Source: Escherichia coli
Lineage (GTDB): Bacteria > Pseudomonadota > Gammaproteobacteria > Enterobacterales > Enterobacteriaceae
DNA length: 64,000 bases
Direction: 5' to 3' (one strand)
NCBI RefSeq assembly: GCF_046105845.1
Contig: NZ_CP151004.1
Positions 1 through 42,967 of the stretch are shown piece after piece; the first letter of the stretch is position 1, and the number at the start of each line of letters is the position of its first letter. The position numbers and the translations under genes are program-made. Below the pieces are notes generated by a model. The model had not been told where the DNA came from. It did not search any database and saw nothing but the letters and a program-made list of their open reading frames with translations.

Positions 1-1026
1 GAAATGCTGCGTCCCGGGCGCAAACTAGCCTCGCTGCTGGTGTCGCGTATCAAGGTGATGGCGCGGCTGGACATTGCCGAAAAGCGCGTGCCGCAGGATG
101 GACGTATTGCGCTGCTGCTGGGCGGTCGGGCGATTGACGTGCGTGTCTCCACCATGCCTTCTGCCTGGGGCGAGCGCGTGGTGCTGCGACTGCTGGACAA
201 AAACCAGGCCCGCCTGACGCTGGAGCGTCTGGGGCTGAGTCATGAACTGACCGCGCAGTTGCGCCAGCTACTGCACAAACCGCACGGTATCTTTCTGGTG
301 ACGGGGCCGACGGGTTCCGGCAAAAGCACCACGCTGTACGCCGGATTGCAGGAGCTGAACAACCATTCGCGCAACATTCTCACGGTTGAAGACCCCATCG
401 AATACATGATTGAAGGGATCGGTCAGACGCAGGTTAACACCCGCGTCGGCATGACCTTCGCCCGTGGCCTGCGCGCGATTTTGCGTCAGGACCCGGATGT
501 GGTGATGGTCGGTGAAATCCGCGATACCGAAACCGCAGAAATCGCTGTTCAGGCGTCGCTCACGGGGCACCTGGTACTTTCCACGCTGCATACCAACACG
601 GCGGTGGGGGCGATTACGCGTTTGCAGGATATGGGCGTCGAGCCTTTCCTGCTCTCTTCCAGTCTGACGGGCGTGATGGCGCAGCGACTGGTCCGCACGC
701 TGTGCCCAGACTGCCGCCAGCCTGCACCTGCCACTGACGAAGAAAAACGCCTGCTGGGAATTACCGACGCGCGTACTGTCACGCTTTACCATCCGCAGGG
801 CTGCCCCGCCTGTAATCACAAAGGTTTCCGCGGGCGTACTGCCATCCATGAGTTGATCGTGGTGGACGCCACATTGCGTGATTTGATCCACCGTCAGGCC
901 GGGGAACTGGAGCTGGAACGTTATGTCCGGCAACAGTCTGCGGGCATCCGCAGCAATGGCATTGAGAAAGTGCTCGCCGGAGAAACCTCTCTCGATGAAG
1001 TTCTGCGGGTAACCATGGAGGCGTAA
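1..1026 (+). CDS. gspE: Type II secretion ATPase GspE, 5' end cut by window edge
   Basis: ORF 4..1026 in frame to window start; Walker [11 protein letters not shown]-terminal CxxC...CxxC motif; followed by gspF-M. Confidence 0.93.
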
Positions 1027-2249
1027 TGGCACTGTTTTACTATCAGGCGCTGGAGCGTAATGGTCGCAAAACCAAAGGCATGATTGAGGCGGATTCAGCG
1101 CGTCATGCCCGCCAGTTGTTGCGCGGTAAAGAGCTTATCCCCGTGCACATTGAAGCCAGGATGAATGCTTCGACAGGGGGAATGTTGCAGCGTCGGCGGC
1201 ACGCACATCGTCGCGTGGCGGCGGCAGATCTGGCGCTGTTCACACGCCAACTGGCAACGTTAGTACAGGCAGCAATGCCGCTGGAAACCTGCTTACAGGC
1301 GGTCAGTGAGCAAAGTGAAAAACTGCATGTGAAAAGCCTCGGAATGGCGCTGCGCAGTCGGATTCAGGAAGGCTATACCCTGTCGGACAGCCTGCGCGAA
1401 CATCCCCGCGTCTTTGACTCCCTGTTTTGTTCGATGGTCGCTGCCGGAGAAAAATCCGGACATCTCGACGTGGTGCTCAATCGCCTGGCGGATTACACCG
1501 AACAGCGGCAGCGCCTGAAATCACGATTGTTGCAGGCCATGCTCTATCCGCTGGTATTGCTGGTGGTGGCAACGGGCGTGGTCACTATTTTGCTGACGGC
1601 AGTGGTGCCGAAAATCATCGAACAGTTCGATCACCTCGGACACGCGCTACCCGCCTCCACCCGAATGCTCATCGCCATGAGCGACGCGTTACAGGCCAGC
1701 GGCGTTTACTGGCTGGCGGGTTTTCTGGGGCTTCTGGTGCTGGGGCAACGGTTACTCAAAAATCCTGCTATGCGCCTGCGCTGGGATAAAACCTTGCTGC
1801 GCCTGCCCGTGACGGGGCGTGTTGCGCGCGGGCTGAATACGGCGCGTTTTTCCCGCACATTAAGCATCCTCACCGCCAGCAGTGTTCCGCTACTGGAAGG
1901 TATTCAGACCGCTGCCGCCGTGTCGGCAAATCGCTATGTCGAGCAACAACTGCTGCTGGCGGCAGATCGCGTCCGCGAAGGAAGCAGTCTGCGCGCCGCG
2001 CTGGCGGAGTTGCGCCTGTTCCCGCCGATGATGCTGTACATGATCGCTTCCGGCGAACAGAGCGGCGAACTGGAAACCATGCTTGAGCAGGCCGCAGTCA
2101 ACCAGGAACGGGAATTTGATACCCAGGTGGGGCTGGCGTTAGGGCTGTTTGAACCGGCGCTGGTGGTGATGATGGCGGGCGTGGTGCTGTTTATCGTCAT
2201 CGCCATCCTCGAACCGATGCTGCAACTGAACAATATGGTTGGAATGTAA
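1026..2249 (+). CDS. gspF: Type II secretion inner-membrane platform protein GspF
   Basis: 407-aa ORF, polytopic membrane protein; ATG overlaps gspE stop (TAATG). Confidence 0.92.
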   Translation: MALFYYQALERNGRKTKGMIEADSARHARQLLRGKELIPVHIEARMNASTGGMLQRRRHAHRRVAAADLALFTRQLATLVQAAMPLETCLQAVSEQSEKLHVKSLGMALRSRIQEGYTLSDSLREHPRVFDSLFCSMVAAGEKSGHLDVVLNRLADYTEQRQRLKSRLLQAMLYPLVLLVVATGVVTILLTAVVPKIIEQFDHLGHALPASTRMLIAMSDALQASGVYWLAGFLGLLVLGQRLLKNPAMRLRWDKTLLRLPVTGRVARGLNTARFSRTLSILTASSVPLLEGIQTAAAVSANRYVEQQLLLAADRVREGSSLRAALAELRLFPPMMLYMIASGEQSGELETMLEQAAVNQEREFDTQVGLALGLFEPALVVMMAGVVLFIVIAILEPMLQLNNMVGM

Positions 2250-2265
2250 TTTACGGAGTTATCAC

Positions 2266-2721
2266 ATGAATTCGTTATCCCGCACACAAAAACCACGGGC
2301 AGGTTTTACCCTGCTGGAAGTGATGGTGGTGATTGTTATTCTTGGCGTCCTGGCAAGTCTGGTGGTGCCTAACCTGTTGGGCAATAAAGAGAAAGCGGAT
2401 CGGCAAAAAGCCATCAGCGATATCGTGGCGCTGGAGAATGCGCTGGATATGTACCGACTGGATAACGGGCGTTATCCGACTACCGAGCAGGGGCTTGAGG
2501 CGCTGATCCAGCAACCGGCCAATATGGCGGACGCCCGCAACTACCGTACCGGTGGATACATCAAACGACTGCCAAAGGATCCGTGGGGCAATGATTATCA
2601 GTATCTCAGCCCGGGTGAAAAAGGGCTGTTTGATGTTTATACCCTGGGGGCAGATGGTCAGGAAAACGGGGAGGGCGCTGGCGCAGATATCGGTAACTGG
2701 AATTTGCAGGAGTTTCAGTAA
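2266..2721 (+). CDS. gspG: Type II secretion major pseudopilin GspG
   Basis: Prepilin leader ending GFTLLEVMVV; GGAG 8 nt upstream of ATG 2266; track ORF start 2239 is probably an in-frame upstream extension. Confidence 0.9.
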   Translation: MNSLSRTQKPRAGFTLLEVMVVIVILGVLASLVVPNLLGNKEKADRQKAISDIVALENALDMYRLDNGRYPTTEQGLEALIQQPANMADARNYRTGGYIKRLPKDPWGNDYQYLSPGEKGLFDVYTLGADGQENGEGAGADIGNWNLQEFQ

Positions 2722-2724
2722 TCA

Positions 2725-3288
2725 GTGCCTGAACGCGGATTCACACTTCTGGAAATCATGCTGGTGATTTTCCTTATCGGCCTTGCCAGTGCGGGCGTGG
2801 TACAGACGTTTGCGACCGCTTCAGAGCCGCCTGCGAAAAAAGCGGCGCAGGATTTTCTGACTCGCTTTGCGCAGTTTAAGGACAGGGCAGTGATCGAAGG
2901 GCAAACACTCGGTGTACTAATCGATCCTCCTGGCTATCAGTTTATGCAGCGTCGTCACGGGCAGTGGTTGCCCGTTTCTGCGACCCGCTTATCGGCACAG
3001 GTTACGGTGCCAAAACAGGTGCAGATGCTGTTACAACCCGGCAGTGATATCTGGCAGAAGGAGTATGCGCTGGAACTGCAGCGTCGTCGCCTGACGCTGC
3101 ACGATATTGAACTGGAGCTGCAAAAAGAGGCGAAAAAGAAGACGCCGCAGATCCGTTTTTCGCCTTTTGAACCCGCCACGCCGTTTACGCTGCGCTTCTA
3201 CTCGGCGGCGCAAAACGCATGTTGGGCGGTAAAACTGGCACACGATGGCGTGTTATCCCTCAATCAATGTGATGAGAGGATGCCATGA
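2725..3288 (+). CDS. gspH: Type II secretion minor pseudopilin GspH
   Basis: GTG start; N-terminal GFTLLEIMLV prepilin motif. Confidence 0.85.
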   Translation: MPERGFTLLEIMLVIFLIGLASAGVVQTFATASEPPAKKAAQDFLTRFAQFKDRAVIEGQTLGVLIDPPGYQFMQRRHGQWLPVSATRLSAQVTVPKQVQMLLQPGSDIWQKEYALELQRRRLTLHDIELELQKEAKKKTPQIRFSPFEPATPFTLRFYSAAQNACWAVKLAHDGVLSLNQCDERMP

Positions 3289-3656
3289 AGCGCGGATTTA
3301 CCTTGCTGGAAGTGATGCTCGCGCTGGCGATTTTTGCGCTGGCGGCCACGGCGGTGTTACAGATTGCCAGCGGTGCGCTGAGTAATCAGCACGTTCTTGA
3401 GGAAAAAACAGTAGCGGGCTGGGTAGCTGAAAACCAGACCGCGCTGCTCTACCTGATGACCCGCGAGCAGCGGGTGGTCAGGCACCAGGGCGAGAGTGAT
3501 ATGGCAGGAAGCCGCTGGTACTGGCGAACCACACCGCTGAATACCGGTAACGCGCTGCTCCAGGCGGTGGATATTGAAGTCAGCCGTCACGAAGATTTTT
3601 CGTCGGTGATTCAGTCACGACGCGCCTGGTTTAGCGCCGTGGGAGGCCAACAGTGA
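3285..3656 (+). CDS. gspI: Type II secretion minor pseudopilin GspI
   Basis: N-terminal KRGFTLLEVMLA prepilin motif; ATGA overlap with gspH stop. Confidence 0.87.
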   Translation: MKRGFTLLEVMLALAIFALAATAVLQIASGALSNQHVLEEKTVAGWVAENQTALLYLMTREQRVVRHQGESDMAGSRWYWRTTPLNTGNALLQAVDIEVSRHEDFSSVIQSRRAWFSAVGGQQ

Positions 3657-4258
3657 GAAGGACTTGCGCTGGTTTCACGTTACTGGAAATGCTGGTGGCA
3701 ATTGCCATTTTTGCCTCGCTGGCACTGATGGCGCAGCAGGTGACTAACGGCGTCACACGCGTGAATAGCGCCGTCGCCGGACACGATCAAAAACTAAACC
3801 TCATGCAGCAAACGATGAGTTTTCTGACCCACGATCTGACACAAATGATGCCGCGTCCGGTAAGAGGCGATCAGGGCCAGCGTGAACCTGCGTTACTGGC
3901 GGGCGCTGGCGTGCTGGCGTCTGAGAGTGAAGGGATGCGCTTTGTGCGTGGCGGCGTGGTTAACCCGTTGATGCGTCTGCCACGCAGTAATCTGCTCACC
4001 GTCGGTTACCGCATTCATGACGGCTATCTCGAACGGTTAGCCTGGCCGCTGACCGACGCAGCAGGCAGCGTGAAGCCGACAATGCAAAAGTTGATTCCGG
4101 CGGATTCGCTCCGTTTGCAGTTCTACGACGGCACGCGCTGGCAGGAGAGCTGGTCATCAGTACAGGCAATCCCAGTGGCGGTGCGCATGACCCTGCATTC
4201 GCCACAATGGGGCGAGATTGAACGCATCTGGTTGTTACGCGGGCCGCAATTATCATGA
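3653..4258 (+). CDS. gspJ: Type II secretion minor pseudopilin GspJ
   Basis: GTG start overlapping gspI stop (GTGA); N-terminal AGFTLLEMLVA prepilin motif. Confidence 0.85.
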   Translation: MRRTCAGFTLLEMLVAIAIFASLALMAQQVTNGVTRVNSAVAGHDQKLNLMQQTMSFLTHDLTQMMPRPVRGDQGQREPALLAGAGVLASESEGMRFVRGGVVNPLMRLPRSNLLTVGYRIHDGYLERLAWPLTDAAGSVKPTMQKLIPADSLRLQFYDGTRWQESWSSVQAIPVAVRMTLHSPQWGEIERIWLLRGPQLS

Positions 4259-5232
4259 TCACCTCACCACCAAAACGCGGAATGGCACTGGTCGTGGTGC
4301 TGGTATTGCTGGCGGTTATGATGCTGGTGACCATCACGCTTTCCGGGCGAATGCAGCAACAACTTGGGCGAACGCGCAGCCAGCAGGAGTACCAGCAGGC
4401 GCTGTGGTACAGCGCCAGTGCGGAAAGCCTGGCGTTGAGCGCACTCAGTCTGAGCCTGAAAAATGAAAAGCGCGTGCATCTGGCGCAGCCGTGGGCTTCC
4501 GGCCCTCGTTTTTTCCCACTGCCGCAGGGGCAAATCGCCGTCACTCTGCGTGACGCACAGGCCTGCTTTAACCTGAATGCCCTCGCTCAGCCGACGACGG
4601 CGTCGCGTCCTATCGCGGTACAACAACTGATTGCCCTGATCTCGCGCCTGGATGTGCCTGCTTATCGGGCCGAACTGATAGCCGAAAGCCTGTGGGAGTT
4701 TATTGACGAGGACCGCAGCGTGCAGACGCGTCTGGGGCGTGAAGACAGCGAGTATCTCGCCCGCTCGGTGCCGTTCTACGCCGCCAATCAACCGCTGGCC
4801 GATATCAGTGAGATGCGCGTGGTACAGGGAATGGACGCCGGGCTTTATCAAAAACTGAAACCGCTGGTCTGTGCGCTGCCGATGACCCGCCAGCAAATCA
4901 ACATCAATACCCTGGACGTCGCGCAAAGTGTGATTCTTGAGGCGCTGTTTGACCCGTGGTTAAGCCCTGTTCAGGCGCGGGCGTTATTACAACAACGTCC
5001 GGCGAAGGGCTGGGAAGATGTCGATCAGTTTCTTGCGCAGCCGCTACTTGCTGACGTCGATGAGCGTACTAAAAAACAGCTAAAAACCGTCCTGAGCGTG
5101 GACAGCAATTACTTCTGGCTGCGTTCAGATATCACCGTGAATGAGATTGAACTGACGATGAACTCGTTAATTGTCCGCATGGGCCCACAACACTTTTCGG
5201 TTCTCTGGCATCAGACAGGAGAAAGTGAGTGA
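4255..5232 (+). CDS. gspK: Type II secretion minor pseudopilin GspK
   Basis: 325-aa ORF with hydrophobic N-terminus (RGMALVVVL); ATGA overlap with gspJ stop. Confidence 0.85.
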   Translation: MITSPPKRGMALVVVLVLLAVMMLVTITLSGRMQQQLGRTRSQQEYQQALWYSASAESLALSALSLSLKNEKRVHLAQPWASGPRFFPLPQGQIAVTLRDAQACFNLNALAQPTTASRPIAVQQLIALISRLDVPAYRAELIAESLWEFIDEDRSVQTRLGREDSEYLARSVPFYAANQPLADISEMRVVQGMDAGLYQKLKPLVCALPMTRQQININTLDVAQSVILEALFDPWLSPVQARALLQQRPAKGWEDVDQFLAQPLLADVDERTKKQLKTVLSVDSNYFWLRSDITVNEIELTMNSLIVRMGPQHFSVLWHQTGESE

Positions 5233-6407
5233 GTTCCATGCTTGAGATTTTTATCCCGCTTTGCGCCTCCGATCCCATCCGTTGGCAGCACCGTACCACC
5301 GACGTGGAGCACGGCATCTGGTCTGACGTTGACAACGAACAGCTCCAGCAATGGCTGCAAACTGATGCGATTCGACTCTACATTCCCGGCGAATGGATCA
5401 GCGTCTGGCAGGTTGAACTGCCTGATATCCCCCGCAAGCAGATACCGACTATTCTGCCCGCCTTGCTGGAAGAAGAGCTGAACCAGGATATCGATGAACT
5501 GCATTTCGCCCCGTTGAAAATCGACCAGCAACTGGCAACCGTAGCAGTGATTCACCAACAGCATATGCGCAACATTGCGCAGTGGTTGCAGGCAAACGGC
5601 ATCACCCGCGCTACCGTCGCGCCGGACTGGATGTCCATTCCTTGTGGGTTTATGGCTGGCGATGCGCAACGGGTTATCTGCCGCATCGATGAATGCCGGG
5701 GATGGAGCGCCGGGCGGGCGCTGGCTCCGGTCATGTTCCGCGCCCAGCTCAATGAGCAGAATTTACCGCTTTCGCTAACCGTAGTCGGCATTGCACCGGA
5801 AGAGCTATCAGCATGGGCTGGCCCAGATGCTGAACGTCTGACCGTTACGGCTCTGCCCGCCATTACCACTTATGGCGAACCGGAAGGAAACCTGCTAACA
5901 GGGCCGTGGCAGCCCCGCGTCAGCTACCGAAAACAGTGGGCGCGCTGGCGGGTGATGATTCTGCCGATATTGCTGATTCTGGTTGCGCTGGCAGTGGAAC
6001 GGGGCGTGACGTTATGGAGCGTCAGCGAACAGGTGGCGCAAAGCCGCACCCAGGCGGAAAAAAAGTTCTTAACACTGTTCCCGGAGCAGAAGCTGATTGT
6101 GAATTTGCGTTCCCAGGTGACGATGGCGCTGAAAAAATATCGCCCGCAGGCCGACGATACCCGGCTGCTCGCTGAGTTGTCAGCGATAGCCAGCACCCTG
6201 AAATCAGCATCACTTTCCGACATCGAAATGCGTGGTTTCACCTTTGATCAAAAACGCCAGACGCTCCACCTTCAGTTGCAGGCCGCGAACTTTGCCAGCT
6301 TCGACAAACTGCGTAGCGCACTGGCGGCAGATTATGTTGTGCAACAGGACGCGTTACAGAAAGAGGGTGATGCGGTTTCCGGCGGCGTAACGTTGCGGAG
6401 GAAATAA
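5229..6407 (+). CDS. gspL: Type II secretion inner-membrane protein GspL, full length
   Basis: 392-aa ORF; GTG start overlapping gspK stop (alternative ATG at 5238); single TM segment mid-protein. Confidence 0.82.
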   Translation: MSSMLEIFIPLCASDPIRWQHRTTDVEHGIWSDVDNEQLQQWLQTDAIRLYIPGEWISVWQVELPDIPRKQIPTILPALLEEELNQDIDELHFAPLKIDQQLATVAVIHQQHMRNIAQWLQANGITRATVAPDWMSIPCGFMAGDAQRVICRIDECRGWSAGRALAPVMFRAQLNEQNLPLSLTVVGIAPEELSAWAGPDAERLTVTALPAITTYGEPEGNLLTGPWQPRVSYRKQWARWRVMILPILLILVALAVERGVTLWSVSEQVAQSRTQAEKKFLTLFPEQKLIVNLRSQVTMALKKYRPQADDTRLLAELSAIASTLKSASLSDIEMRGFTFDQKRQTLHLQLQAANFASFDKLRSALAADYVVQQDALQKEGDAVSGGVTLRRK

Positions 6408-6408
6408 C

Positions 6409-6945
6409 ATGTTACGCGATAAATTTATTCACTATTTTCAGCAATGGCGTGAACGCCAGTTAAGCCGTGGCGAACACTGGCTTACACAACACCTGGCGGG
6501 GCGTTCTCCGCGTGAAAAGGGCATGTTACTGGCAGCGGTGGTGTTCCTGTTTAGCGTCGGATATTACGTCCTCATCTGGCAGCCGTTGAGCGAACGGATA
6601 GAACAACAGGAGACGTTGTTGCAGCAGCTGGTGGCAATGAACACCCGACTGAAGAGCGCCGCGCCGGATATTATTGCGGCGCGAAAATCCGCCACAACAA
6701 CGCCTGCGCAGGTATCTCGGGTCATCAGTGACAGTGCTTCCGTGCACTCAGTGGTCATCAAGCGGATAGCCGAGCGCGGGGAGAATATTCAGGTCTGGAT
6801 AGAACCTGTGGTGTTTAATGACCTGCTGAATTGGCTTAATGCGCTGGATGAAAAGTATGCGCTGCGGGTGACACAAATTGATGTCAGTGCAGGTGAGAAG
6901 CCTGGGATGGTGAATGTGCAGCGGCTGGAGTTTGGAGGGGGGTAA
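6409..6945 (+). CDS. gspM: Type II secretion protein GspM
   Basis: 178-aa ORF with N-terminal TM helix; GGAG RBS; position matches K-12 yghD next to pheV. Confidence 0.82.
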   Translation: MLRDKFIHYFQQWRERQLSRGEHWLTQHLAGRSPREKGMLLAAVVFLFSVGYYVLIWQPLSERIEQQETLLQQLVAMNTRLKSAAPDIIAARKSATTTPAQVSRVISDSASVHSVVIKRIAERGENIQVWIEPVVFNDLLNWLNALDEKYALRVTQIDVSAGEKPGMVNVQRLEFGGG

Positions 6946-7055
6946 GTATCAGGAGATTAATATCAATAAAATTACTCTCGTTAACGTGGCGAGAGTAATT
7001 CCCCCAGACCTCATAAGCTAAGTTTTTTCGTGAAGGTTATTGCCAGATCCAAAAG

Positions 7056-7080
7056 CAAAAACCCGCCTTGTGGGCGGGTT
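7056..7080 (-). terminator. Rho-independent terminator of pheV
   Basis: Minus-strand hairpin AACCCGCC-CACA-AGGCGGGTT followed by TTTTGCTTTT, directly 3' of the tRNA. Confidence 0.55.
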
Positions 7081-7092
7081 CTTAAGAATTAG

Positions 7093-7168
7093 TGGTGCCC
7101 GGACTCGGAATCGAACCAAGGACACGGGGATTTTCAATCCCCTGCTCTACCGACTGAGCTATCCGGGC
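7093..7168 (-). tRNA. pheV: tRNA-Phe (anticodon GAA)
   Basis: Reverse complement reads the 76-nt E. coli tRNA-Phe sequence, GCCCGGATAGCTCAGTCGGTAGAGCAGGGGATTGAAAATCCCCGTGTCCTTGGTTCGATTCCGAGTCCGGGCACCA. Confidence 0.96.
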
Positions 7169-7273
7169 AACGGGGCGCATTAAACCTGATTCGCCTCGTC
7201 TCGTCAATCAAATTTCTTCAATTTACTGCAGACTGCACAATCTATCATCACTTTGCCGCTAATGCACGCATTG

Positions 7274-8002
7274 TCAGGCAAACCAAGCGGTCCAGGCGGC
7301 GGAAAGCGGCATTGCCAGAAGGAGTGCTGGAAGCATGTTGACCACCGGGAACATTTTAATGCCACAGATGCGTAATCCGGTTGCCAGCAGCAATAAACCG
7401 CCTACGGCGCTGAAGTCTGCCATCATCGACGGTGTGGTCAGCGGTAATATCAGCGCGGCAGCCCACGCCAGCGTTAACTGGATGATCAGTAATGGGATAC
7501 TAATCACCGATACCGCAATACCCAGCGAGCAGGCGAAGATCATCGCCGTAAAGAAATCAAGAAATGACTTGGCGATTAAAATACTCGGATCGCCGGTCAT
7601 CCCTTCGTTCATTGCCCCGAAGATCCCGGTGCCGCTGGCGCAAAACAGGACAATAATCGCGACATAATTCTGAATAAAAGATTCATGCGCTGGCTTCTTA
7701 CGTGAGTGGCGAAACAGATTTTGTGCTTTGGTGACCGCGGTATTGACGCCTTTTTCCAGCAGACAAATTTCGCCGATTAATGCACCGAGTAAGGTTGCTA
7801 ACACCATCGCAGGAAGGTTGGCGCATTTCACCACCAGTAAAATACCAATCCCCAGCGATGCCAGACCAAAAATTGATGTCATGGAGACGCGGATACGTTC
7901 CGGTAAGCGTTGGCTAAGGAGTGCACCGAGAACGCCACCCAGTAATACTGCACTTGCGTTGATAAAAGGACCGATGACCACAAGAGTTCCTGTTAGCTGC
8001 AT
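7274..8002 (-). CDS. yqgA: DUF554 inner-membrane protein YqgA
   Basis: 242-aa hydrophobic ORF between pheV and speC, as in K-12. Confidence 0.85.
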   Translation of the reverse strand: MQLTGTLVVIGPFINASAVLLGGVLGALLSQRLPERIRVSMTSIFGLASLGIGILLVVKCANLPAMVLATLLGALIGEICLLEKGVNTAVTKAQNLFRHSRKKPAHESFIQNYVAIIVLFCASGTGIFGAMNEGMTGDPSILIAKSFLDFFTAMIFACSLGIAVSVISIPLLIIQLTLAWAAALILPLTTPSMMADFSAVGGLLLLATGLRICGIKMFPVVNMLPALLLAMPLSAAWTAWFA

Positions 8003-8373
8003 TATCTGATTTTCTTATTATGAACGTTTGGCACCTTCGATGGCTTGTTTGTTCGCAAAGTCCTGGCTTGCACGCTCTGGTGAAAGGTGCCATGATTGCG
8101 CGAATTTTCTCCTCTCTGTACGGAGTTTGCCCGATGCACGCCACCTCCTTACATTCTCTCGCTTATCGCCGTTTCGCGCGAAACTCCTCCCCTTTTCTGC
8201 TCATGCGGTGAAGTTAACGCACGCTCACTGCAGGACAACAGTAAAATCAGAGCGTTTCTGCTTTTACTGATGTCTGGCGGTCGGAGCTGGTGACCAGTTT
8301 GACCCATATCTCGTGGGGCAGGGTTTTTCACCTTGTCCGGTATTCTTACTTCCCCGAAACGGGTTTTGCGCTT

Positions 8374-10509
8374 ATGAAATCAATGAATATTGCCGCCAGT
8401 AGTGAACTGGTATCCCGACTTTCTACTCATCGCCGCGTGGTGGCGTTGGGAGATACTGATTTTACGGACGTCGCGGCAGTCGTCATTACCGCTGCGGATA
8501 GTCGCAGTGGCATTCTTGCGTTGCTTAAGCGCACCGGTTTTCATCTACCGGTGTTTTTGTATTCCGAACATGTTGTTGAATTACCTGCGGGCGTTACGGC
8601 GGTAATCAACGGCAACGAGCAGCAGTGGCTGGAGCTGGAATCCGCAGCCTGTCAGTATGAAGAGAATTTGCTGCCACCGTTTTATGACACGCTGACGCAG
8701 TACGTTGAGATGGGCAACAGCACCTTTGCTTGCCCTGGACATCAACATGGTGCGTTTTTTAAAAAGCATCCTGCCGGACGCCATTTTTACGATTTCTTTG
8801 GTGAGAACGTCTTTCGCGCCGATATGTGTAACGCTGACGTAAAATTGGGCGATCTGCTTATTCATGAAGGATCGGCGAAAGATGCGCAGAAATTCGCAGC
8901 CAAAGTCTTTCATGCCGATAAAACCTATTTTGTACTGAACGGCACATCGGCAGCGAATAAAGTGGTGACGAATGCGCTGTTAACGCGTGGCGATCTGGTG
9001 CTCTTCGACCGTAACAACCATAAGTCGAATCATCACGGCGCGCTGATTCAGGCGGGGGCGACGCCGGTCTATCTGGAAGCTTCACGTAACCCGTTTGGTT
9101 TCATTGGCGGTATTGATGCGCACTGTTTTAATGAAGAGTATCTGCGCCAGCAAATTCGCGACGTTGCGCCAGAAAAAGCTGAGTTGCCGCGCCCGTTTCG
9201 CCTGGCGATTATTCAGTTGGGAACCTATGACGGCACTGTCTATAACGCCCGTCAGGTGGTCGATACCGTTGGGCATCTGTGTGATTACATTCTGTTTGAT
9301 TCCGCATGGGTCGGTTACGAACAGTTTATCCCGATGATGGCGGATAGCTCGCCGCTGCTGTTAGAACTTAACGAAAACGATCCGGGGATCTTTGTGACTC
9401 AGTCGGTGCACAAACAGCAGGCGGGATTCTCACAGACGTCGCAGATCCATAAAAAAGATAACCATATCTGCGGACAGGTGCGTTTTTGCCCGCATAAGCG
9501 GTTGAATAATGCCTTTATGCTCCATGCTTCTACCAGCCCGTTCTATCCGTTGTTTGCCGCGCTGGACGTTAACGCCAAAATTCATGAAGGGGAGAGTGGG
9601 CGTCGGCTGTGGGCTGAGTGTGTAGAGTTGGGGATTGAGTCGCGCAAGGCGATTCTTGCGCGCTGTAAGCTGTTCCGCCCGTTTATCCCGCCCGTTGTTG
9701 ATGGCAAATTGTGGCAGGATTATCCGACATCAGTGTTAGCCAGCGACCGCCGTTTTTTCAGTTTTGAGCCGGGGGCGAAGTGGCACGGCTTTGAAGGATA
9801 TGCCGCGGATCAGTATTTTGTTGATCCGTGCAAGCTGTTACTCACTACACCAGGTATTAATGCCGAAACTGGCGAATATAGCGACTTTGGCGTTCCGGCG
9901 ACGATTCTGGCGCACTATCTGCGTGAGAACGGCATTGTGCCGGAGAAGTGCGATCTCAATTCCATTCTGTTCTTATTAACGCCGGCGGAAAGCCACGAGA
10001 AGCTGGCACAACTGGTGGCGATGCTGGCGCAATTTGAACAGCATATTGAGGATGACTCGCCGCTGGTTGAGGTGTTGCCGAGCGTTTATAACAAATATCC
10101 GGTGCGCTATCGCGACTACACCCTGCGCCAGTTGTGTCAGGAGATGCACGATCTGTATGTCAGTTTCGACGTCAAAGACCTACAAAAAGCGATGTTCCGC
10201 CAGCAGAGTTTCCCGTCAGTGGTGATGAACCCCCAGGACGCGCATAGCGCTTATATTCGCGGTGAAGTGGAGTTGGTGCGGATTCGTGATGCCGAAGGGC
10301 GAATTGCGGCAGAAGGGGCGTTGCCTTATCCACCAGGCGTGCTTTGCGTGGTGCCCGGGGAAGTCTGGGGTGGGGCGGTTCAACGTTATTTCCTTGCGCT
10401 GGAAGAAGGGGTGAATTTGTTGCCGGGATTTTCGCCGGAGCTGCAAGGTGTCTATAGCGAAACCGATGCAGATGGCATGAAACGATTGTACGGTTATGTG
10501 TTGAAGTAA
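8374..10509 (+). CDS. speC: Ornithine decarboxylase, constitutive (SpeC)
   Basis: 711-aa product from ATG 8374 (MKSMNIAASSEL...); track ORF begins upstream at 8290. Confidence 0.95.
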   Translation: MKSMNIAASSELVSRLSTHRRVVALGDTDFTDVAAVVITAADSRSGILALLKRTGFHLPVFLYSEHVVELPAGVTAVINGNEQQWLELESAACQYEENLLPPFYDTLTQYVEMGNSTFACPGHQHGAFFKKHPAGRHFYDFFGENVFRADMCNADVKLGDLLIHEGSAKDAQKFAAKVFHADKTYFVLNGTSAANKVVTNALLTRGDLVLFDRNNHKSNHHGALIQAGATPVYLEASRNPFGFIGGIDAHCFNEEYLRQQIRDVAPEKAELPRPFRLAIIQLGTYDGTVYNARQVVDTVGHLCDYILFDSAWVGYEQFIPMMADSSPLLLELNENDPGIFVTQSVHKQQAGFSQTSQIHKKDNHICGQVRFCPHKRLNNAFMLHASTSPFYPLFAALDVNAKIHEGESGRRLWAECVELGIESRKAILARCKLFRPFIPPVVDGKLWQDYPTSVLASDRRFFSFEPGAKWHGFEGYAADQYFVDPCKLLLTTPGINAETGEYSDFGVPATILAHYLRENGIVPEKCDLNSILFLLTPAESHEKLAQLVAMLAQFEQHIEDDSPLVEVLPSVYNKYPVRYRDYTLRQLCQEMHDLYVSFDVKDLQKAMFRQQSFPSVVMNPQDAHSAYIRGEVELVRIRDAEGRIAAEGALPYPPGVLCVVPGEVWGGAVQRYFLALEEGVNLLPGFSPELQGVYSETDADGMKRLYGYVLK

Positions 10510-10510
10510 G

Positions 10511-10549
10511 AAAAAAAAGGGTCACCTTCTGGCGACCCGTTTTTCTTTG
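10511..10549. terminator. Bidirectional rho-independent terminator between convergent speC and nupG
   Basis: A-run, hairpin GGGTCACC-TTCT-GGCGACCC, then T-run; readable as hairpin plus U-tract on both strands. Confidence 0.7.
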
Positions 10550-10554
10550 CGTAA

Positions 10555-11811
10555 TTAGTGGCTCACCGTCTGTGTGCCTGTCGGGACACGAACGTGTTTA
10601 TATTTGAACATCGCCATGAACGCGAAGGCCAGAACCACGGAGTAACCAGCGAAAATCAACCATACGGTCTGCCAGTCGGTAATGCCGTTTTGGGTGTACA
10701 TCTCAACAACTTTACCGCTCACGATGCCGCCAAGGATACAGCCGAAGCCGTTAGTCATCATCAGGAACATCCCCTGCGCACTGGCGCGAATTGCCGGGCT
10801 AACTTCTTTTTCGACAAACACCGAACCAGAGATGTTGAAGAAGTCGAATGCGCAACCGTAAACGATCATCGACAGTACCAGCAGCACGGTACCGAACGGA
10901 GTCGGGTCGCCGTAAGCAAACAGCGCAAAACGCAGGATCCACGCCACAATACTGATCATCATTACGTTCTTAATACCGTAGCGGCTTAAGAAGAACGGGA
11001 TAGTCAGAATGAACAGGGTTTCAGAGATCTGCGAAATCGACATGATGATTGACGCATGCTGCACAATAAAGCTGCTGGCAAACATCGGATCTTTGTCGAA
11101 GCTGTGCAGGAAGGTGTTACCGAACATGTTGGTAATCTGCAGTTCCGCGCCCAGCAGCATTGAGAAGATGAAGAAGATTGCCATACGCTTGTTTTTAAAC
11201 AGCGCGAATGCATCGAGGCCCAGCAGGGTTGTCCAGCTCTGATTCGCTTGCTGTTTAGCAACCGGAATATGCGGCAGAGTCAAGGTAAACAGAACCAGAA
11301 TGGCGGAAAGTGCTGCGCCAATATACAGCTGCATGTGGCTTAATTCGAAGCCAGACAGGCTCACCACCCACATTGCCATGATAAAGCCGATGGTGCCCCA
11401 GATACGGATTGGCGGGAAGTCAGTAACGATATCCATCCCGGCATTTTGCAGGCGATAGTAAGAGATGGTGTTGATTAACCCAAGCGTTGGCATATAAGCA
11501 AACGAGTTAATCAATATCACAAGGAACATCGCCTCCGGCGTCGTGACCTGGGCCGCCATGAACAGCGTGATAGCGCCAATGGTGTGGCAAATGGCATAGA
11601 CCCATTTCGCACTTAACCATTTGTCGGCCACAATCCCCAGCAGCGCTGGCATAAAGACCGCGGCGATACCCAGTGAACTATAAACTGCGCCGATAGAAGC
11701 ACCGTCAAACTTCAGGGTAACAAACATATAGGAGCCGAGGGTCGTCAGCCAACTTCCCCACAGACAGAACTGCAGAAAAGAGAGGATTTTCAGCTGCAGC
11801 TTAAGATTCAT
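10555..11811 (-). CDS. nupG: Nucleoside:H+ symporter NupG
   Basis: 418-aa MFS permease from MNLKLQLKILSF; track ORF extends 16 codons upstream. Confidence 0.93.
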   Translation of the reverse strand: MNLKLQLKILSFLQFCLWGSWLTTLGSYMFVTLKFDGASIGAVYSSLGIAAVFMPALLGIVADKWLSAKWVYAICHTIGAITLFMAAQVTTPEAMFLVILINSFAYMPTLGLINTISYYRLQNAGMDIVTDFPPIRIWGTIGFIMAMWVVSLSGFELSHMQLYIGAALSAILVLFTLTLPHIPVAKQQANQSWTTLLGLDAFALFKNKRMAIFFIFSMLLGAELQITNMFGNTFLHSFDKDPMFASSFIVQHASIIMSISQISETLFILTIPFFLSRYGIKNVMMISIVAWILRFALFAYGDPTPFGTVLLVLSMIVYGCAFDFFNISGSVFVEKEVSPAIRASAQGMFLMMTNGFGCILGGIVSGKVVEMYTQNGITDWQTVWLIFAGYSVVLAFAFMAMFKYKHVRVPTGTQTVSH

Positions 11812-11958
11812 GTTAATTTCCTCACATCGTGATGCGGATGAGTGTTTGAAAAAGCACATTTGACCGTGCGAGATGATGGGATTCTATCAACTTCGCGGAC
11901 TGGTTTTTTGTTACCTGTGGCAAATAATTGCAAACATTCCCAATTTGCAAAACGAAAT

Positions 11959-11974
11959 TGTGATGTGGATAACA
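11959..11974 (-). promoter_or_regulatory. Candidate CRP site upstream of nupG
   Basis: TGTGA-N6-TAACA, about 150 bp upstream of the nupG start. Confidence 0.3.
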
Positions 11975-12012
11975 TTTTTACCCCTGAGCATCGTCAGGGG
12001 CGGTTAGTGGAA

Positions 12013-13119
<1,107 letters not shown>

Positions 13120-13156
13120 TTATGCAAGTTGCCGGAGGCGTGCTCCGGCACTGTTT

Positions 13157-13435
<279 letters not shown>

Positions 13436-13459
13436 TCATCCTCTTTATCGACTCACGCG

Positions 13460-14512
13460 CTAAACCGGCGCGCCAGTGCGTAACTGCTGTAACAAACGCT
13501 CCACGGGAGCCGCCAGGCCAACTGACGGCGGTTGCGCTAAGTTATACCAGAGCGCATTGCCTTCATCCATGCAGCCGGTGAATGACGACACGGGAAGCCA
13601 CATAGGCACAATATCTAAGTGGAAATGGCTGAAGGTATGCCGAAACGCGGTCAGCTGCGTCAGGTTATCGGCAGAAATCTGTCGTTGCGCCAGCCACTGC
13701 CGCAAACTTTCTTCATCGGCAAACTGCGGGAAACAGTATAAACCGCCCCACAATCCGCTCGGCGGACGCTGCGCCAGCAATACTTCATCTTCGTGCTGTA
13801 ACAGCAAAAAGTAGCCGGTGCGCTCTGGCAGCGTCTGTTTCGGTTTTTTGCCCGGATAAAGCGACCAGCTATTGTTGGCGGCGGCAATACATCCGTTTTG
13901 TAGCGGACAGAGCGAACATTTCGGCTTAGAGCGCGTACAAATCATCGCGCCCAAATCCATCATCGCCTGATTAAACCGTTCCACGCCAACCGCGGGCGTC
14001 ACCTGCTCGCTCAAACTCCATAGTTTATTCTCGACCTCTTTTTTCCCAGGCCAGCCGCTTACAGCATAGCAGCGCGCCAGCACCCGTTTGACGTTACCGT
14101 CGAGAATCGGAAAGTGCTTACCCAGAGAAAGCGAGAGAATCGCGCCTGCGGTGGAACGCCCGACGCCCGGTAACGCCGCGACTTCTTCAAAGGTTTCCGG
14201 GAATTTACCGCCGTGTAAGGTCGCCACTTGTTGTGCCGCTTTATGCAGATTGCGCGCGCGGGCGTAATAGCCAAGCCCGGTCCACAAGTGGAGAACTTCG
14301 TCCAGCGGCGCATTGGCGAGATCGGTCACCGTTGGGAAGCGCGCCATAAAGCGTTCAAAATAGGGGATAACGGTCGCAACCTGAGTTTGTTGCAACATCA
14401 CTTCTGAGAGCCATACTTTGTAGGGCGTCTTGTCAATTTGCCAGGGCAGCGTTTTCCGCCCGTATTTATCGTACCAGTCCAGAGCCTGGGCTGAAAATTG
14501 CGACGCTTGCAT
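13460..14512 (-). CDS. mutY: Adenine DNA glycosylase MutY
   Basis: 350-aa product from MQASQFSAQ; [4Fe-4S] Cys cluster CxxxxxxCxxCxxxxxC near residue 190; track ORF extends 10 codons upstream. Confidence 0.93.
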
Positions 14513-14672
14513 GGTCACCGAATTCACTGTTGTTGGGGGCAAGATTGCAGCACAGCGACGGCAGGGTGTAAACCGGAACTTTCCGCAGCCACGGCCTTAT
14601 CATGCTTGCATCCGGCAACTAACTTTGGATAATGCCCGTTTTCAGAACACTTTCACAAGCGACTAAATCTTT

Positions 14673-15392
14673 ATGAAAAACGACGTCATCTCACCGGAAT
14701 TTGATGAAAACGGCCGCCCGCTGCGCCGTATCCGTAGTTTTGTGCGCCGCCAGGGGCGACTGACCAAAGGCCAGGAACATGCGCTGGAAAACTACTGGCC
14801 GGTGATGGGCGTTGAGTTCAGCGAAGATATGCTGGATTTCCCTGCGCTTTTTGGCCGTGAAGCGCCGGTGACGCTTGAGATTGGTTTCGGCATGGGGGCG
14901 TCGCTGGTGGCAATGGCTAAAGATCGCCCCGAGCAGGACTTCCTCGGCATTGAAGTGCATTCACCGGGCGTTGGTGCGTGCCTGGCTTCTGCGCATGAAG
15001 AGGGCTTAAGCAACCTGCGCGTGATGTGTCACGATGCGGTTGAAGTGCTGCATAAAATGATTCCTGACAATTCATTGCGCATGGTGCAGCTCTTTTTCCC
15101 TGACCCGTGGCACAAAGCGCGCCATAATAAACGCCGTATCGTTCAGGTGCCGTTTGCCGAACTGGTAAAAAGCAAACTGCAACTGGGGGGCGTATTCCAT
15201 ATGGCGACCGACTGGGAACCTTATGCGGAACATATGCTTGAAGTGATGTCTTCTATTGACGGTTATAAAAACCTGTCAGAGAGCAATGATTACGTACCTC
15301 GTCCGGCATCACGTCCGGTGACGAAATTTGAACAACGTGGTCATCGTCTTGGTCACGGAGTATGGGACTTAATGTTCGAGAGGGTGAAATAA
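14673..15392 (+). CDS. trmB: tRNA (guanine-N7)-methyltransferase
   Basis: 239-aa ORF; stop overlaps yggL start (TAATG). Confidence 0.93.
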
Positions 15393-15718
15393 TGGCAAAG
15401 AACCGTAGCCGTCGTCTGCGTAAAAAAATGCACATCGACGAATTCCAGGAATTAGGATTTTCGGTGGCATGGCGATTCCCGGAAGGTACATCGGAAGAAC
15501 AGATTGATAAAACCGTTGATGACTTTATTAACGAGGTTATCGAACCGAACAAACTGGCCTTTGACGGCAGCGGTTATCTGGCCTGGGAAGGTCTGATCTG
15601 CATGCAGGAAATCGGCAAATGCACCGAAGAACATCAGGCGATTGTGCGTAAGTGGCTGGAAGAGCGCAAACTGGGCGAGGTACGCACCAGCGAACTTTTC
15701 GACGTTTGGTGGGACTAA
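15392..15718 (+). CDS. yggL: DUF469 protein YggL
   Basis: 108-aa product from [12 protein letters not shown]. Confidence 0.9.
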   Translation: MAKNRSRRLRKKMHIDEFQELGFSVAWRFPEGTSEEQIDKTVDDFINEVIEPNKLAFDGSGYLAWEGLICMQEIGKCTEEHQAIVRKWLEERKLGEVRTSELFDVWWD

Positions 15719-15760
15719 GAAAGCATACGGGCGATGACAAAGTTAAAAAAAGCGCTCGGA

Positions 15761-15872
15761 TAGTCCCCTCGCCCCTCCGGGGAGAGGGTTAGGGTGAGGG
15801 GAACAGACCAGCACTGGCGCGATTATTTACCCTCACCCCGACCCTCTCCCTAAAAGGGCGAGGGGGAAAACC
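15761..15872. repeat. GC-rich composite palindromic intergenic repeat (two inverted copies of a ~40-bp motif)
   Basis: Left arm CCCCTCGCCCCTCCGGGGAGAGGGTTAGGGTGAGGG; reverse complement of right arm CCCCCTCGCCCTTTTAGGGAGAGGGTCGGGGTGAGGG; arms about 20 bp apart. Confidence 0.55.
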
Positions 15873-15954
15873 GTGCCCCTTTTGACTTTTAAGCCAGTTT
15901 GTTATCAATCTGGGGCCAGCAAATGCTGGCCTGATTTGTTCTTGAGGGAAGACT

Positions 15955-16674
15955 ATGATGCGCAAAATGCTGCTGGCGGCAGCACTTTCAGTGACGGCAA
16001 TGACCGCTCACGCCGACTACCAGTGCAGCGTCACGCCGCGTGACGATGTGATTGTCAGCCCGCAAACCGTGCAGGTGAAGGGCGAAAACGGCAATCTGGT
16101 GATCACGCCAGACGGCAACGTGATGTATAACGGTAAGCAATATTCCCTGAATGCCGCCCAGCGCGAGCAGGCGAAGGATTATCAGGCTGAACTGCGTAGC
16201 ACGCTGCCGTGGATTGATGAAGGTGCGAAAAGCCGCGTCGAGAAAGCCCGTATTGCGCTGGATAAAATTATCGTTCAGGAGATGGGCGAAAGCAGCAAAA
16301 TGCGCAGCCGTCTGACCAAACTTGATGCGCAGCTGAAAGAGCAGATGAACCGCATTATCGAAACGCGCAGCGATGGCCTGACGTTTCACTATAAAGCCAT
16401 TGATCAGGTTCGCGCCGAAGGCCAGCAATTAGTGAATCAGGCAATGGGCGGAATTTTACAGGACAGCATTAATGAAATGGGCGCGAAAGCGGTGCTGAAA
16501 AGCGGCGGTAACCCATTACAGAATGTGCTGGGAAGCCTGGGCGGTCTGCAATCCTCAATCCAAACCGAATGGAAAAAGCAGGAAAAAGATTTCCAACAGT
16601 TTGGCAAAGATGTTTGTAGCCGCGTTGTGACTCTGGAAGATAGCCGCAAAGCCCTGGTCGGGAATTTAAAATAA
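15955..16674 (+). CDS. yggN: DUF2884 periplasmic protein YggN
   Basis: 239-aa ORF with signal peptide. Confidence 0.88.
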   Translation: MMRKMLLAAALSVTAMTAHADYQCSVTPRDDVIVSPQTVQVKGENGNLVITPDGNVMYNGKQYSLNAAQREQAKDYQAELRSTLPWIDEGAKSRVEKARIALDKIIVQEMGESSKMRSRLTKLDAQLKEQMNRIIETRSDGLTFHYKAIDQVRAEGQQLVNQAMGGILQDSINEMGAKAVLKSGGNPLQNVLGSLGGLQSSIQTEWKKQEKDFQQFGKDVCSRVVTLEDSRKALVGNLK

Positions 16675-16849: not shown

Positions 16850-17896
16850 ATGGAGTTTTTCAAAAAGACGGCACTTGCCGCACTGGTTATGGGTTTTAGT
16901 GGTGCAGCATTGGCATTACCCAATATCACCATTTTAGCAACCGGCGGGACCATTGCCGGTGGTGGTGACTCCGCAACCAAATCTAACTACACAGCGGGTA
17001 AAGTTGGCGTAGAAAATCTGGTTAATGCGGTGCCGCAACTGAAGGACATTGCGAACGTTAAAGGCGAGCAGGTAGTGAATATCGGCTCCCAGGACATGAA
17101 CGATAATGTCTGGCTGACACTGGCGAAAAAAATTAACACCGACTGCGATAAAACCGACGGCTTCGTCATTACCCACGGTACCGACACGATGGAAGAAACC
17201 GCTTACTTCCTCGACCTGACGGTGAAATGCGACAAACCGGTGGTGATGGTCGGCGCAATGCGCCCGTCCACGTCCATGAGCGCAGACGGTCCATTCAACC
17301 TGTATAACGCGGTAGTGACCGCAGCTGATAAAGCCTCCGCTAATCGTGGCGTGCTGGTGGTGATGAACGACACCGTACTGGACGGTCGCGATGTCACCAA
17401 AACCAACACCACCGACGTAGCGACCTTCAAGTCTGTTAACTACGGTCCTCTGGGATACATTCACAACGGTAAGATTGACTACCAACGTACCCCGGCACGT
17501 AAGCACACCAGCGATACGCCGTTCGATATCTCTAAGCTGAATGAGCTGCCGAAAGTCGGCATCGTTTATAACTACGCTAACGCATCCGATCTTCCGGCTA
17601 AAGCACTGGTAGATGCGGGCTATGATGGCATCGTTAGCGCTGGTGTGGGTAATGGTAACCTGTATAAATCCGTGTTCGACACCCTTGCAACCGCCGCGAA
17701 AAACGGCACTGCAGTCGTGCGTTCTTCCCGCGTACCGACGGGCGCTACCACTCAGGATGCCGAAGTGGATGATGCGAAATATGGCTTCGTGGCCTCTGGC
17801 ACGCTGAACCCGCAAAAAGCGCGCGTTCTGCTGCAACTGGCTCTGACGCAAACCAAAGATCCGCAGCAGATCCAGCAGATCTTCAATCAGTACTAA
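16850..17896 (+). CDS. ansB: Periplasmic L-asparaginase II
   Basis: 348-aa ORF with signal peptide; asparaginase motifs (TGGTIAG, HGTDTMEET). Confidence 0.95.
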   Translation: MEFFKKTALAALVMGFSGAALALPNITILATGGTIAGGGDSATKSNYTAGKVGVENLVNAVPQLKDIANVKGEQVVNIGSQDMNDNVWLTLAKKINTDCDKTDGFVITHGTDTMEETAYFLDLTVKCDKPVVMVGAMRPSTSMSADGPFNLYNAVVTAADKASANRGVLVVMNDTVLDGRDVTKTNTTDVATFKSVNYGPLGYIHNGKIDYQRTPARKHTSDTPFDISKLNELPKVGIVYNYANASDLPAKALVDAGYDGIVSAGVGNGNLYKSVFDTLATAAKNGTAVVRSSRVPTGATTQDAEVDDAKYGFVASGTLNPQKARVLLQLALTQTKDPQQIQQIFNQY

Positions 17897-17903
17897 TCAC
17901 CTC

Positions 17904-17929
17904 GCCCCGGTAACGTGCCGGGGCTTTTT
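17904..17929 (+). terminator. Rho-independent terminator of ansB
   Basis: GCCCCGG-TAACGTG-CCGGGGC followed by TTTTT. Confidence 0.7.
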
Positions 17930-18012
17930 CACTTCAGACTTACGTCCATTGCCAATTTTCATTACCCTGATGATAATCACTGGAATAAATTATTCCGCGA
18001 GAGGGTTTTCGG

Positions 18013-19020
18013 GTGAAAAAGCAATGGATTGTTGGCACGGCGCTGCTTATGTTGATGACTGGTAATGTCTGGGCAGATGGCGAACCGCCAACTGAAAATA
18101 TCTTAAAAGATCAATTCAAAAAGCAGTATCACGGCATTCTCAAGCTTGATGCTATCACCTTAAAAAATCTTGATGCTAAGGGTAATCAGGCCACCTGGTC
18201 AGCGGAAGGCGATGTCTCTTCCAGTGACGATCTCTATACCTGGGTCGGTCAGTTGGCAGATTACGAACTGCTCGAACAGACCTGGACGAAAGATAAACCG
18301 GTAAAATTCTCGGCGATGTTAACCAGTAAAGGAACGCCCGCGTCTGGCTGGTCGGTGAACTTTTACTCTTTTCAGGCGGCAGCCAGCGATCGTGGACGGG
18401 TGGTCGACGATATCAAAACGAATAATAAATATCTGATCGTGAATAGCGAAGATTTCAATTATCGCTTTAGTCAGCTTGAGACTGCGTTGAATACCCAGAA
18501 GAACTCGATTCCTGCGCTGGAAAAGGAAGTGAAAGCGCTTGATAAGCAAATGGTGGCGGCGCAGAAAGCAGCGGATGCATATTGGGGAAAAGATGCAAAC
18601 GGTAAGCAAATGACCCGCGAAGACGCATTTAAAAAAATTCACCAACAGCGTGATGAGTTTAATAAACAGAACGATAGCGAGGCGTTCGCGATTAAATATG
18701 ACAAAGAGGTTTATCAACCGGCGATTGCGGCATGTCATAAACAGAGTGCAGAGTGTTATGAAGTGCCGATTCAGCAGAAGCGAGAATTCGATATCAACGA
18801 ACAACGGCGACAGACTTTTCTGCAATCACAAAAAATTAGCCGTAAATTGCAGGATGACTGGATAACGCTCGAAAAAGGGCAATATCCGTTAACGATGAAA
18901 GTTTCAGAAATAAACAGTAAAAAAGTCGCGATTTTGATGAAAATTGACGATATCAATCAGGCTAATGAACGCTGGAAAAAAGATACCGAACAATTGCGGC
19001 GCAATGGAGTGATTAAGTAA
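18013..19020 (+). CDS. yggM: DUF1202 periplasmic protein YggM
   Basis: 335-aa ORF, GTG start, signal peptide. Confidence 0.88.
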   Translation: MKKQWIVGTALLMLMTGNVWADGEPPTENILKDQFKKQYHGILKLDAITLKNLDAKGNQATWSAEGDVSSSDDLYTWVGQLADYELLEQTWTKDKPVKFSAMLTSKGTPASGWSVNFYSFQAAASDRGRVVDDIKTNNKYLIVNSEDFNYRFSQLETALNTQKNSIPALEKEVKALDKQMVAAQKAADAYWGKDANGKQMTREDAFKKIHQQRDEFNKQNDSEAFAIKYDKEVYQPAIAACHKQSAECYEVPIQQKREFDINEQRRQTFLQSQKISRKLQDDWITLEKGQYPLTMKVSEINSKKVAILMKIDDINQANERWKKDTEQLRRNGVIK

Positions 19021-19035
19021 CTCATGTTAAGTGCC

Positions 19036-19078
19036 TTTGCCGGATAATATAAAAAGTTATCCGGCAAATTATTTTTTA
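19036..19078 (+). terminator. Rho-independent terminator after yggM
   Basis: 12-bp stem TTTGCCGGATAA/TTATCCGGCAAA, 9-nt loop, then TTATTTTTT; the T-tract overlaps the stop codon of the convergent TRAP large-permease gene. Confidence 0.75.
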
Positions 19079-41666: not shown

Positions 41667-41692
41667 AAGGGCCGCGAAAGCGGCCCTTTTTT
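41667..41692 (+). terminator. Rho-independent terminator of tktA
   Basis: GGGCCGC-GAAA-GCGGCCC followed by TTTTTT; the T-tract overlaps the stop codon of the convergent SPFH gene. Confidence 0.75.
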
Positions 41693-42591: not shown

Positions 42592-42967
42592 ATGAATCTT
42601 CCTTGAGTAAAGTGGGGAATATGTCACATGAGGTGAGGAGAAAATAGCCGACAGGTGAGAATTCAGAATCTATAAAGGGGTATAGCGAAAAAACATTGCA
42701 TTAAAAAAGTATGTTTTCGGACATTCAATAAATAAATGGCGATATGCATCACAAATACAACAACAATCAAAATGTTGATTTTGTGACAAACATAACAAAT
42801 ACAAAATTGACTTTAAAAATATCAATTTCATGTTGTTGTTATTTAAAGTTTTATTATTTTTGTTCATGGGGTTTTTCTTCTCGCGTACCCAATTGCTTTC
42901 ATTAAACCGCACGAGTATTTTATTTTTACCGCCGGACGGTACCCTAAAAATAAAATAAGGATAATTT

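Follow-up and report, generated by a model that had tools for sequence, protein, structure and literature searches.

The first 6,945 nucleotides of a 64,000-nucleotide stretch of Escherichia coli DNA (contig NZ_CP151004.1; the whole stretch is referred to here as the window) hold the promoter-distal part, from the 3′ end of gspE to gspM, of the chromosomal operon of the type II secretion system beta (T2SS-beta). This part, the downstream two-thirds of the operon, is undamaged in sequence and lies at the usual site of the system beside pheV. The probability of this reading is put at about 0.9. The full layout of the operon is sslE/yghJ, pppA, gspS-beta (also known as aspS or yghG) and gspCDEFGHIJKLM. 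The operon is already known, textbook and widespread.

The genes of the window were called from a listing of open reading frames (ORFs), with ARAGORN for tRNA genes, an Rfam scan and an NCBIfam profile search with curated cut-offs. The ORF listing gives nine successive reading frames on the + strand of positions 1-6945, a partial gspE followed by gspF, gspG, gspH, gspI, gspJ, gspK, gspL and gspM. Together with the NCBIfam matches this bears out the initial annotation, which had described nine consecutive co-oriented gsp genes, with gspE present only as its 3′ part. All eight complete genes (gspF to gspM) score above NCBIfam equivalog cut-offs, GspM doing so with the YghD-specific ‘exception’ model. 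The gspE frame (1-1026), encoding the secretion ATPase, is open from base 1 and comprises the 341 C-terminal codons, out of 497 in the full gene, and the stop codon. The fragment matches positions 150-486 of the 486 in the GspE profile TIGR02533 (E value 5e-168), and both the Walker A/B motifs and the tetracysteine zinc motif CPDC...CPAC were found in the visible protein.

The components of the inner-membrane platform in the window, GspF, GspL and GspM, are all full length. The platform protein GspF (1026-2249, 407 amino acids) covers the whole of TIGR02120 at 489 bits against a cut-off of 424, and the exact protein is held at NCBI as E. coli GspF, WP_409023776.1. GspL is a bitopic inner-membrane protein that couples GspE to the periplasmic parts of the system. 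Its gene (5229-6407) begins with GTG and encodes 392 amino acids, matching positions 7-391 of the 392 in TIGR01709 with 180 bits (cut-off 65). The length is the same as in the RefSeq annotation, so that the earlier description of gspL as full length holds. The last gene, gspM, also known as yghD (6409-6945, 178 amino acids), matches positions 1-178 of the 178 in NF007274 (YghD) with 404 bits against a cut-off of 352.

The five pseudopilins, GspG to GspK, all carry a prepilin leader. The major pseudopilin gene gspG (2266-2721, 151 amino acids) scores 192 bits with TIGR01710 (cut-off 89); its annotated ATG is at 2266, and a longer ORF runs from a TTG at 2239. It is followed by the minor pseudopilin genes gspH (2725-3288, GTG start, 187 amino acids; TIGR01708, 187 bits, cut-off 80), gspI (3285-3656, 123 amino acids; TIGR01707, 87 bits, cut-off 44) and gspJ (3653-4258, GTG start, 201 amino acids; TIGR01711, 176 bits, cut-off 65). 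The minor pseudopilin of the pseudopilus tip is encoded by gspK (4255-5232, 325 amino acids; NF037980, 286 bits, cut-off 130). The initial annotation had noted four pseudopilins with the G-F-T-L-L-E motif, and the G|FTLLE leader was indeed found in GspG (residue 13), GspH (residue 5), GspI (residue 4) and GspJ (residue 7). The leader of GspK reads GMALVV and has no Glu5; a leader without this glutamate is usual for GspK. Among solved structures in the PDB, the best matches to GspG are 3FU1, 4LW9 and 3GN9, presumably all from Vibrio, the PDB table being without organism names. GspK matches chain K of 3CI0 with 640 bits over 296 residues. This entry is taken here, on the same footing, to be the GspK-I-J complex of enterotoxigenic E. 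coli (ETEC).

The assignment of the cluster to T2SS-beta, made from the outset, is supported by the pheV neighbourhood, the score with the YghD model, 95% identity to the YghE and YghD proteins of K-12, and much lower identity to the alpha system. From GspE to GspM, identity between the proteins of the window and their alpha counterparts in K-12 is 66, 45, 63, 29, 30, 25, 35, 20 and 19%. The beta locus is the chromosomal site between glcA/sslE and pheV-yqgA-speC, and the window has pheV, yqgA and speC as in K-12 and in E. coli VCSW7. It has been reported that T2SS-beta adjoins pheV (PMC3707838). The proposed adjacency to pheV is confirmed by a tRNA-Phe gene lying 147 bases past gspM.

It could be argued that the cluster is instead T2SS-alpha (gspC-O beside rpsJ/bfr) or a type IV pilus-like set (hofBC/ppd), because the proteins of the window also match the PilB, PilC, HofC and ComG models. 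Such matches are expected because these proteins belong to a shared superfamily, and they fall far under their cut-offs, whereas the GspF to GspL models were passed. With the low identity to the alpha proteins, the beta-locus neighbours and the match to the YghD-specific model, the probability of either identity is negligible. Both were rejected on NCBIfam scores, comparison with the K-12 loci and low alpha identity. The K-12 alpha system (gspAB, gspC-O), which secretes ChiA, is a machine of the same type with the same gene order from E to M. It differs in its rpsJ-bfr locus, in having the peptidase gene gspO inside the operon, and in the 19-66% protein identity to the window. Its secretin is of the Klebsiella type (PMC3542185).

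The integrity of the T2SS-beta genes was assessed against relatives found by megablast among 5,426 complete E. coli genomes, which served as the reference for both prevalence and divergence. Window positions 1-7200 align whole and in one piece, and the top complete-genome match is VCSW7. From gspF to yghD, the RefSeq coordinates in VCSW7 match the frames of the window base for base, with the same lengths and the same ATG or GTG starts. There is no indel or internal stop inside any gsp gene relative to VCSW7, and the sole indel in the gsp part is one base just past the gspM stop codon. The two sequences differ by 191 synonymous and 44 non-synonymous changes, an overall ratio of non-synonymous to synonymous substitution rates (dN/dS) of 0.07. 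By gene, the ratio is at most 0.065 for gspE to gspK, 0.22 for gspL and 0.16 for gspM, and GspK has 0 amino-acid differences. The gsp genes, GspL and GspM at 0.16-0.22 included, thus appear to be under purifying selection, and nothing was found in their sequence to argue against T2SS-beta. To judge from the reading frames, the part of the operon in the window is undamaged.

The upstream part of the operon lies outside the window, and the same sequence was sought elsewhere by exact-protein look-up. The draft genome GCA_044249515.1 (contig DBAMWG010000003.1; L014) has one mismatch, at window position 1212, over window positions 1-16407, an identity of 99.994%. Directly upstream, this contig carries pppA (269 amino acids, Peptidase_A24), the gene for the T2SSS_2/AspS pilotin GspS-beta (PF16549, 136 amino acids), gspC (319 amino acids), gspD (686 amino acids) and a full gspE (497 amino acids), of which the C-terminus is identical to the GspE fragment of the window. 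The GspD of L014 matches PDB entry 5ZDH with 1378 bits, 5W68 with 813 bits and 5WQ7 with 546 bits. As the PDB table is again without organism names, these are assumed to be the ETEC GspD-beta/AspS complex, the secretin of enteropathogenic E. coli (EPEC) and the K-12 alpha secretin, respectively. The Logan assembly of SRR31598815 (L002) matches the window at all but 2 of 7,122 bases. It also carries sslE (1519 amino acids, M60 peptidase domains), pppA and the pilotin gene, and its gspC frame is open for 319 amino acids from the annotated TTG start. An exact-protein look-up with the GspC of L014 matched other strains only, this protein being common, and sslE was read from L002 instead. The genes expected just upstream, gspC, gspD and that of a prepilin peptidase, are thus seen in L014 and L002 as proxies; the window itself does not reach them.

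In K-12 MG1655, the same locus reads pheV, yghD (178 amino acids), yghE (286 amino acids), yghF (331 amino acids), yghG, pppA and yghJ. Over the full 178 residues, the GspM of the window and YghD share 95% identity. The GspL of the window likewise shares 95% identity with YghE, which aligns to GspL residues 107-392 only. Along its entire length, the GspC of L002 has 94% identity to YghF. The earlier view that K-12 has only degenerate yghD, yghE and yghF is right in substance, with the correction that yghF (GspC) and yghD (GspM) are full length. The K-12 lesion is one internal deletion running from gspD into gspL. The remnant shares its locus and flanks (pheV, yqgA, speC) with the window. Missing from it are gspD to gspK and codons 1-106 of gspL; the window has the 3′ part of gspE and every gene from gspF to gspM. 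A deletion of gspD-K in K-12 has been reported (PMC3707838).

Several points weigh against an undamaged operon. The start of gspE lies upstream, with its first 156 codons outside the window, and gspE cannot be claimed as ‘intact’ from a window whose edge truncates it. The genes gspC, gspD, pppA, sslE and the pilotin gene are seen only in the near-identical genomes and not in the window's own record. Relative to VCSW7, there are 18 missense changes in GspL and 7 in GspM, which may have an effect. A scan of 6800-8400 for sigma-70-like promoters found none, as is to be expected; the result is uninformative because the operon promoters lie upstream of the window.

The genes could thus be present and the system dead, through a lesion in the upstream gspC, gspD, pppA or pilotin gene or in the 5′ part of gspE, or through a disabling missense change, for example in GspL or GspM. 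Upstream integrity was not directly observed, as the window starts inside gspE, and the dN/dS of GspL and GspM exceeds that of the other genes. Independent losses of T2SS-beta are also common: approximately 40% of complete genomes are without the full cluster, gspL is broken in the genome L026, and the K-12 deletion is a further case. Pseudogenes do occur in this lineage, as two other accessory genes of the window are inactivated. Against this, every upstream gene was called at full reference length in L014, which differs from the window at 1 base in 16.4 kb. Identical GspL and GspM alleles are found in a number of independent assemblies (13 contigs), all frames are open with their motifs intact, and a ratio of 0.16-0.22 is still purifying. 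A dead system is therefore considered improbable. A functional T2SS-beta is probably present in this strain, a conclusion held with good confidence from the intact frames, the overall dN/dS, the motifs and the complete, near-identical relatives.

The mechanism proposed for T2SS-beta in this strain follows what is established for type II secretion in general and studies of strains H10407, E2348/69 and W. PppA would cleave and methylate the G|FTLLE leaders of GspG, GspH, GspI and GspJ, GspK having the variant leader GMALVV. A hexameric GspE ATPase, seated on the GspF/L/M inner-membrane platform, would power the assembly of GspG into a short pseudopilus with GspK-I-J at its tip. This structure would then push folded periplasmic substrates out through a Vibrio-type GspD-beta secretin, which the AspS pilotin would deliver to the outer membrane. 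The predicted substrates are the lipoprotein mucinase SslE/YghJ and, in strains having it (ETEC), the heat-labile enterotoxin. Export of the heat-labile toxin is relevant only if the strain carries eltAB, on which the window is silent.

Secretion by T2SS-beta has been shown experimentally in W, E2348/69 and H10407 (PMC3707838, PMC3542185). In the non-pathogenic strain W, the orthologous cluster secretes SslE and pppA is required; secretion occurs in rich medium at 37 °C, with none at 30 °C or in minimal medium (PMC3707838). AspS (YghG) has been identified as the pilotin, and the Vibrio-type class of secretins has been defined (PMC3542185). The T2SS-beta of ETEC H10407, EPEC E2348/69 and E. coli W shares the gene order, the gene lengths and the chromosomal site beside pheV with the window. 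Upstream genes for SslE, PppA and the pilotin, as in those systems, are seen in the near-identical genomes. At the sequence level, differences between these systems and the window are allelic only. The GspK of the window is near-identical to 3CI0_K and the GspD of L014 to 5ZDH, both presumably of ETEC origin. The Eps T2SS of Vibrio cholerae resembles T2SS-beta in its Vibrio-type secretin, its AspS-family pilotin and its AcfD/SslE-like substrate (PMC3542185). It belongs to another genus and another genomic context, and cholera toxin is among its substrates.

The gene junctions of the cluster are tight. The gspF ATG overlaps the gspE stop codon by one base; the H/I, I/J, J/K and K/L junctions overlap by 4 nucleotides, and gspL and gspM are 1 nucleotide apart. 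The overlapping junctions at E/F, H/I, I/J, J/K and K/L, of the ATGA and GTGA kind, fit translation from one polycistronic mRNA, and the arrangement is consistent with a polycistronic, translationally coupled gsp message. On the + strand, 25 nucleotides past the gspM stop codon, folding of the RNA of 6940-7095 gives a perfect 14-bp hairpin (6970-7000) with no U-run after it, which may be the 3′ end or a stabiliser of the operon transcript.

The tRNA-Phe(GAA) gene pheV (7093-7168, − strand) was found by ARAGORN and by Rfam (RF00005, 68 bits); the Rfam scan of the whole window returned nothing besides this tRNA. It is convergent with the gsp operon, in the same position as in K-12 and VCSW7, and is followed by yqgA and speC. 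Between the two convergent units lies an intrinsic-terminator-like hairpin with a T-run (7056-7084, − strand), downstream of pheV, detected by terminator scan and folding. The gspM-pheV spacer is only 147 bases (6946-7092) in the window, and neither flank of the tRNA gene carries an island. Ten genomes with the same GspE protein (L004-L013) have ATP-binding cassette (ABC) transporter genes after gspM, at 17417-21494 of their loci. From their Pfam domains, these genes are taken to be the kps capsule exporter genes kpsM and kpsT. These ten genomes thus have a kps cluster between gspM and pheV, which the window lacks.

At least 80% of window positions 1-7200 is held in one place by 3,275 of the 5,426 complete E. 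coli genomes (60%), and carriage of the cluster is thus ordinary for the species, most members having it. Each of the eight complete proteins of the window is already deposited at NCBI under E. coli, with names from GspF to GspM; the accessions of the exact GspF, GspI, GspL and GspM matches step with the gene order (HBB8112910.1 to HBB8112917.1). From gspE to serA, the 64-kb window runs collinear with E. coli chromosomes over its entire length and contains no insertion sequences. Against the complete genomes, identity reaches at best 96.7-97.7% in the gsp part and 98.6-99.0% over the remainder of the window. Over no large part of the window does any complete genome of the collection exceed 99.0% identity; near-identical drafts exist (GCA_044249515.1 and the Logan assembly of SRR31598815). 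Finished genomes seem to cover this lineage poorly. These modest identities raised the question of an origin in Shigella or a cryptic Escherichia clade. Such a source was rejected, as the exact proteins are deposited under E. coli, GCA_044249515.1 is 99.994% identical, the window is collinear with E. coli chromosomes, and the low value for the gsp part has its own explanation in recombination.

The gsp operon is a mosaic, in which blocks of 300-1500 bases identical to kps strains alternate with blocks diverged by 4-7%. In 300-base bins, the window is identical to the kps strain L004 over 1-1500, 2401-2700 and 5101-5400, and differs by 13-22 bases in each of the other bins. The synonymous divergence (dS) of the operon is 0.12, exceeding the value for the flanking core genes by a factor of 2-3. 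The low identity of the gsp part is attributed to this recombination mosaic, which fits the description of the pheV neighbourhood as a hypervariable locus (PMC3707838). A more speculative suggestion, and one that is rather doubtful at present, is that T2SS-beta comprises at least two deeply split allelic lineages, with free recombination between them beside the pheV hotspot, with the GspL/GspM pair co-evolving or under relaxed or diversifying selection.

Other features were observed elsewhere in the window. A three-gene operon for a tripartite ATP-independent periplasmic (TRAP) transporter lies on the − strand at 19076-21911, between yggM and hemW, where K-12 has nothing. Its large-permease gene (dctM family, 19076-20377) has TGG changed to TAG at codon 41, a stop at 20255-20257, and is for this reason probably a pseudogene in this strain. 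Between tkt and cmtB there is a prohibitin/HflC-like accessory gene (approximately 41692-42592, − strand) that K-12 lacks. In comparison with E. coli TUM14759, 8 bp are deleted from it at approximately 42347, which shifts the frame past about codon 85. Between speA and speB, where K-12 has only a 137-bp spacer, there is an ORF of 243 amino acids (36784-37515, + strand); it is annotated as a ‘hypothetical protein’ in a relative and matched no NCBIfam family. The yggL-yggN spacer (15741-15898, 157 bases) fails to align with the corresponding 104 bases of VCSW7, where a small hypothetical ORF is annotated.

For the biology of the strain, these findings mean that it would keep an SslE-secreting T2SS-beta, a colonisation and biofilm factor and, in ETEC, the export route of the heat-labile toxin, with little import beyond annotation. 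In contrast to K-12, display or secretion of the mucinase SslE, a vaccine candidate as well, is likely in this strain.

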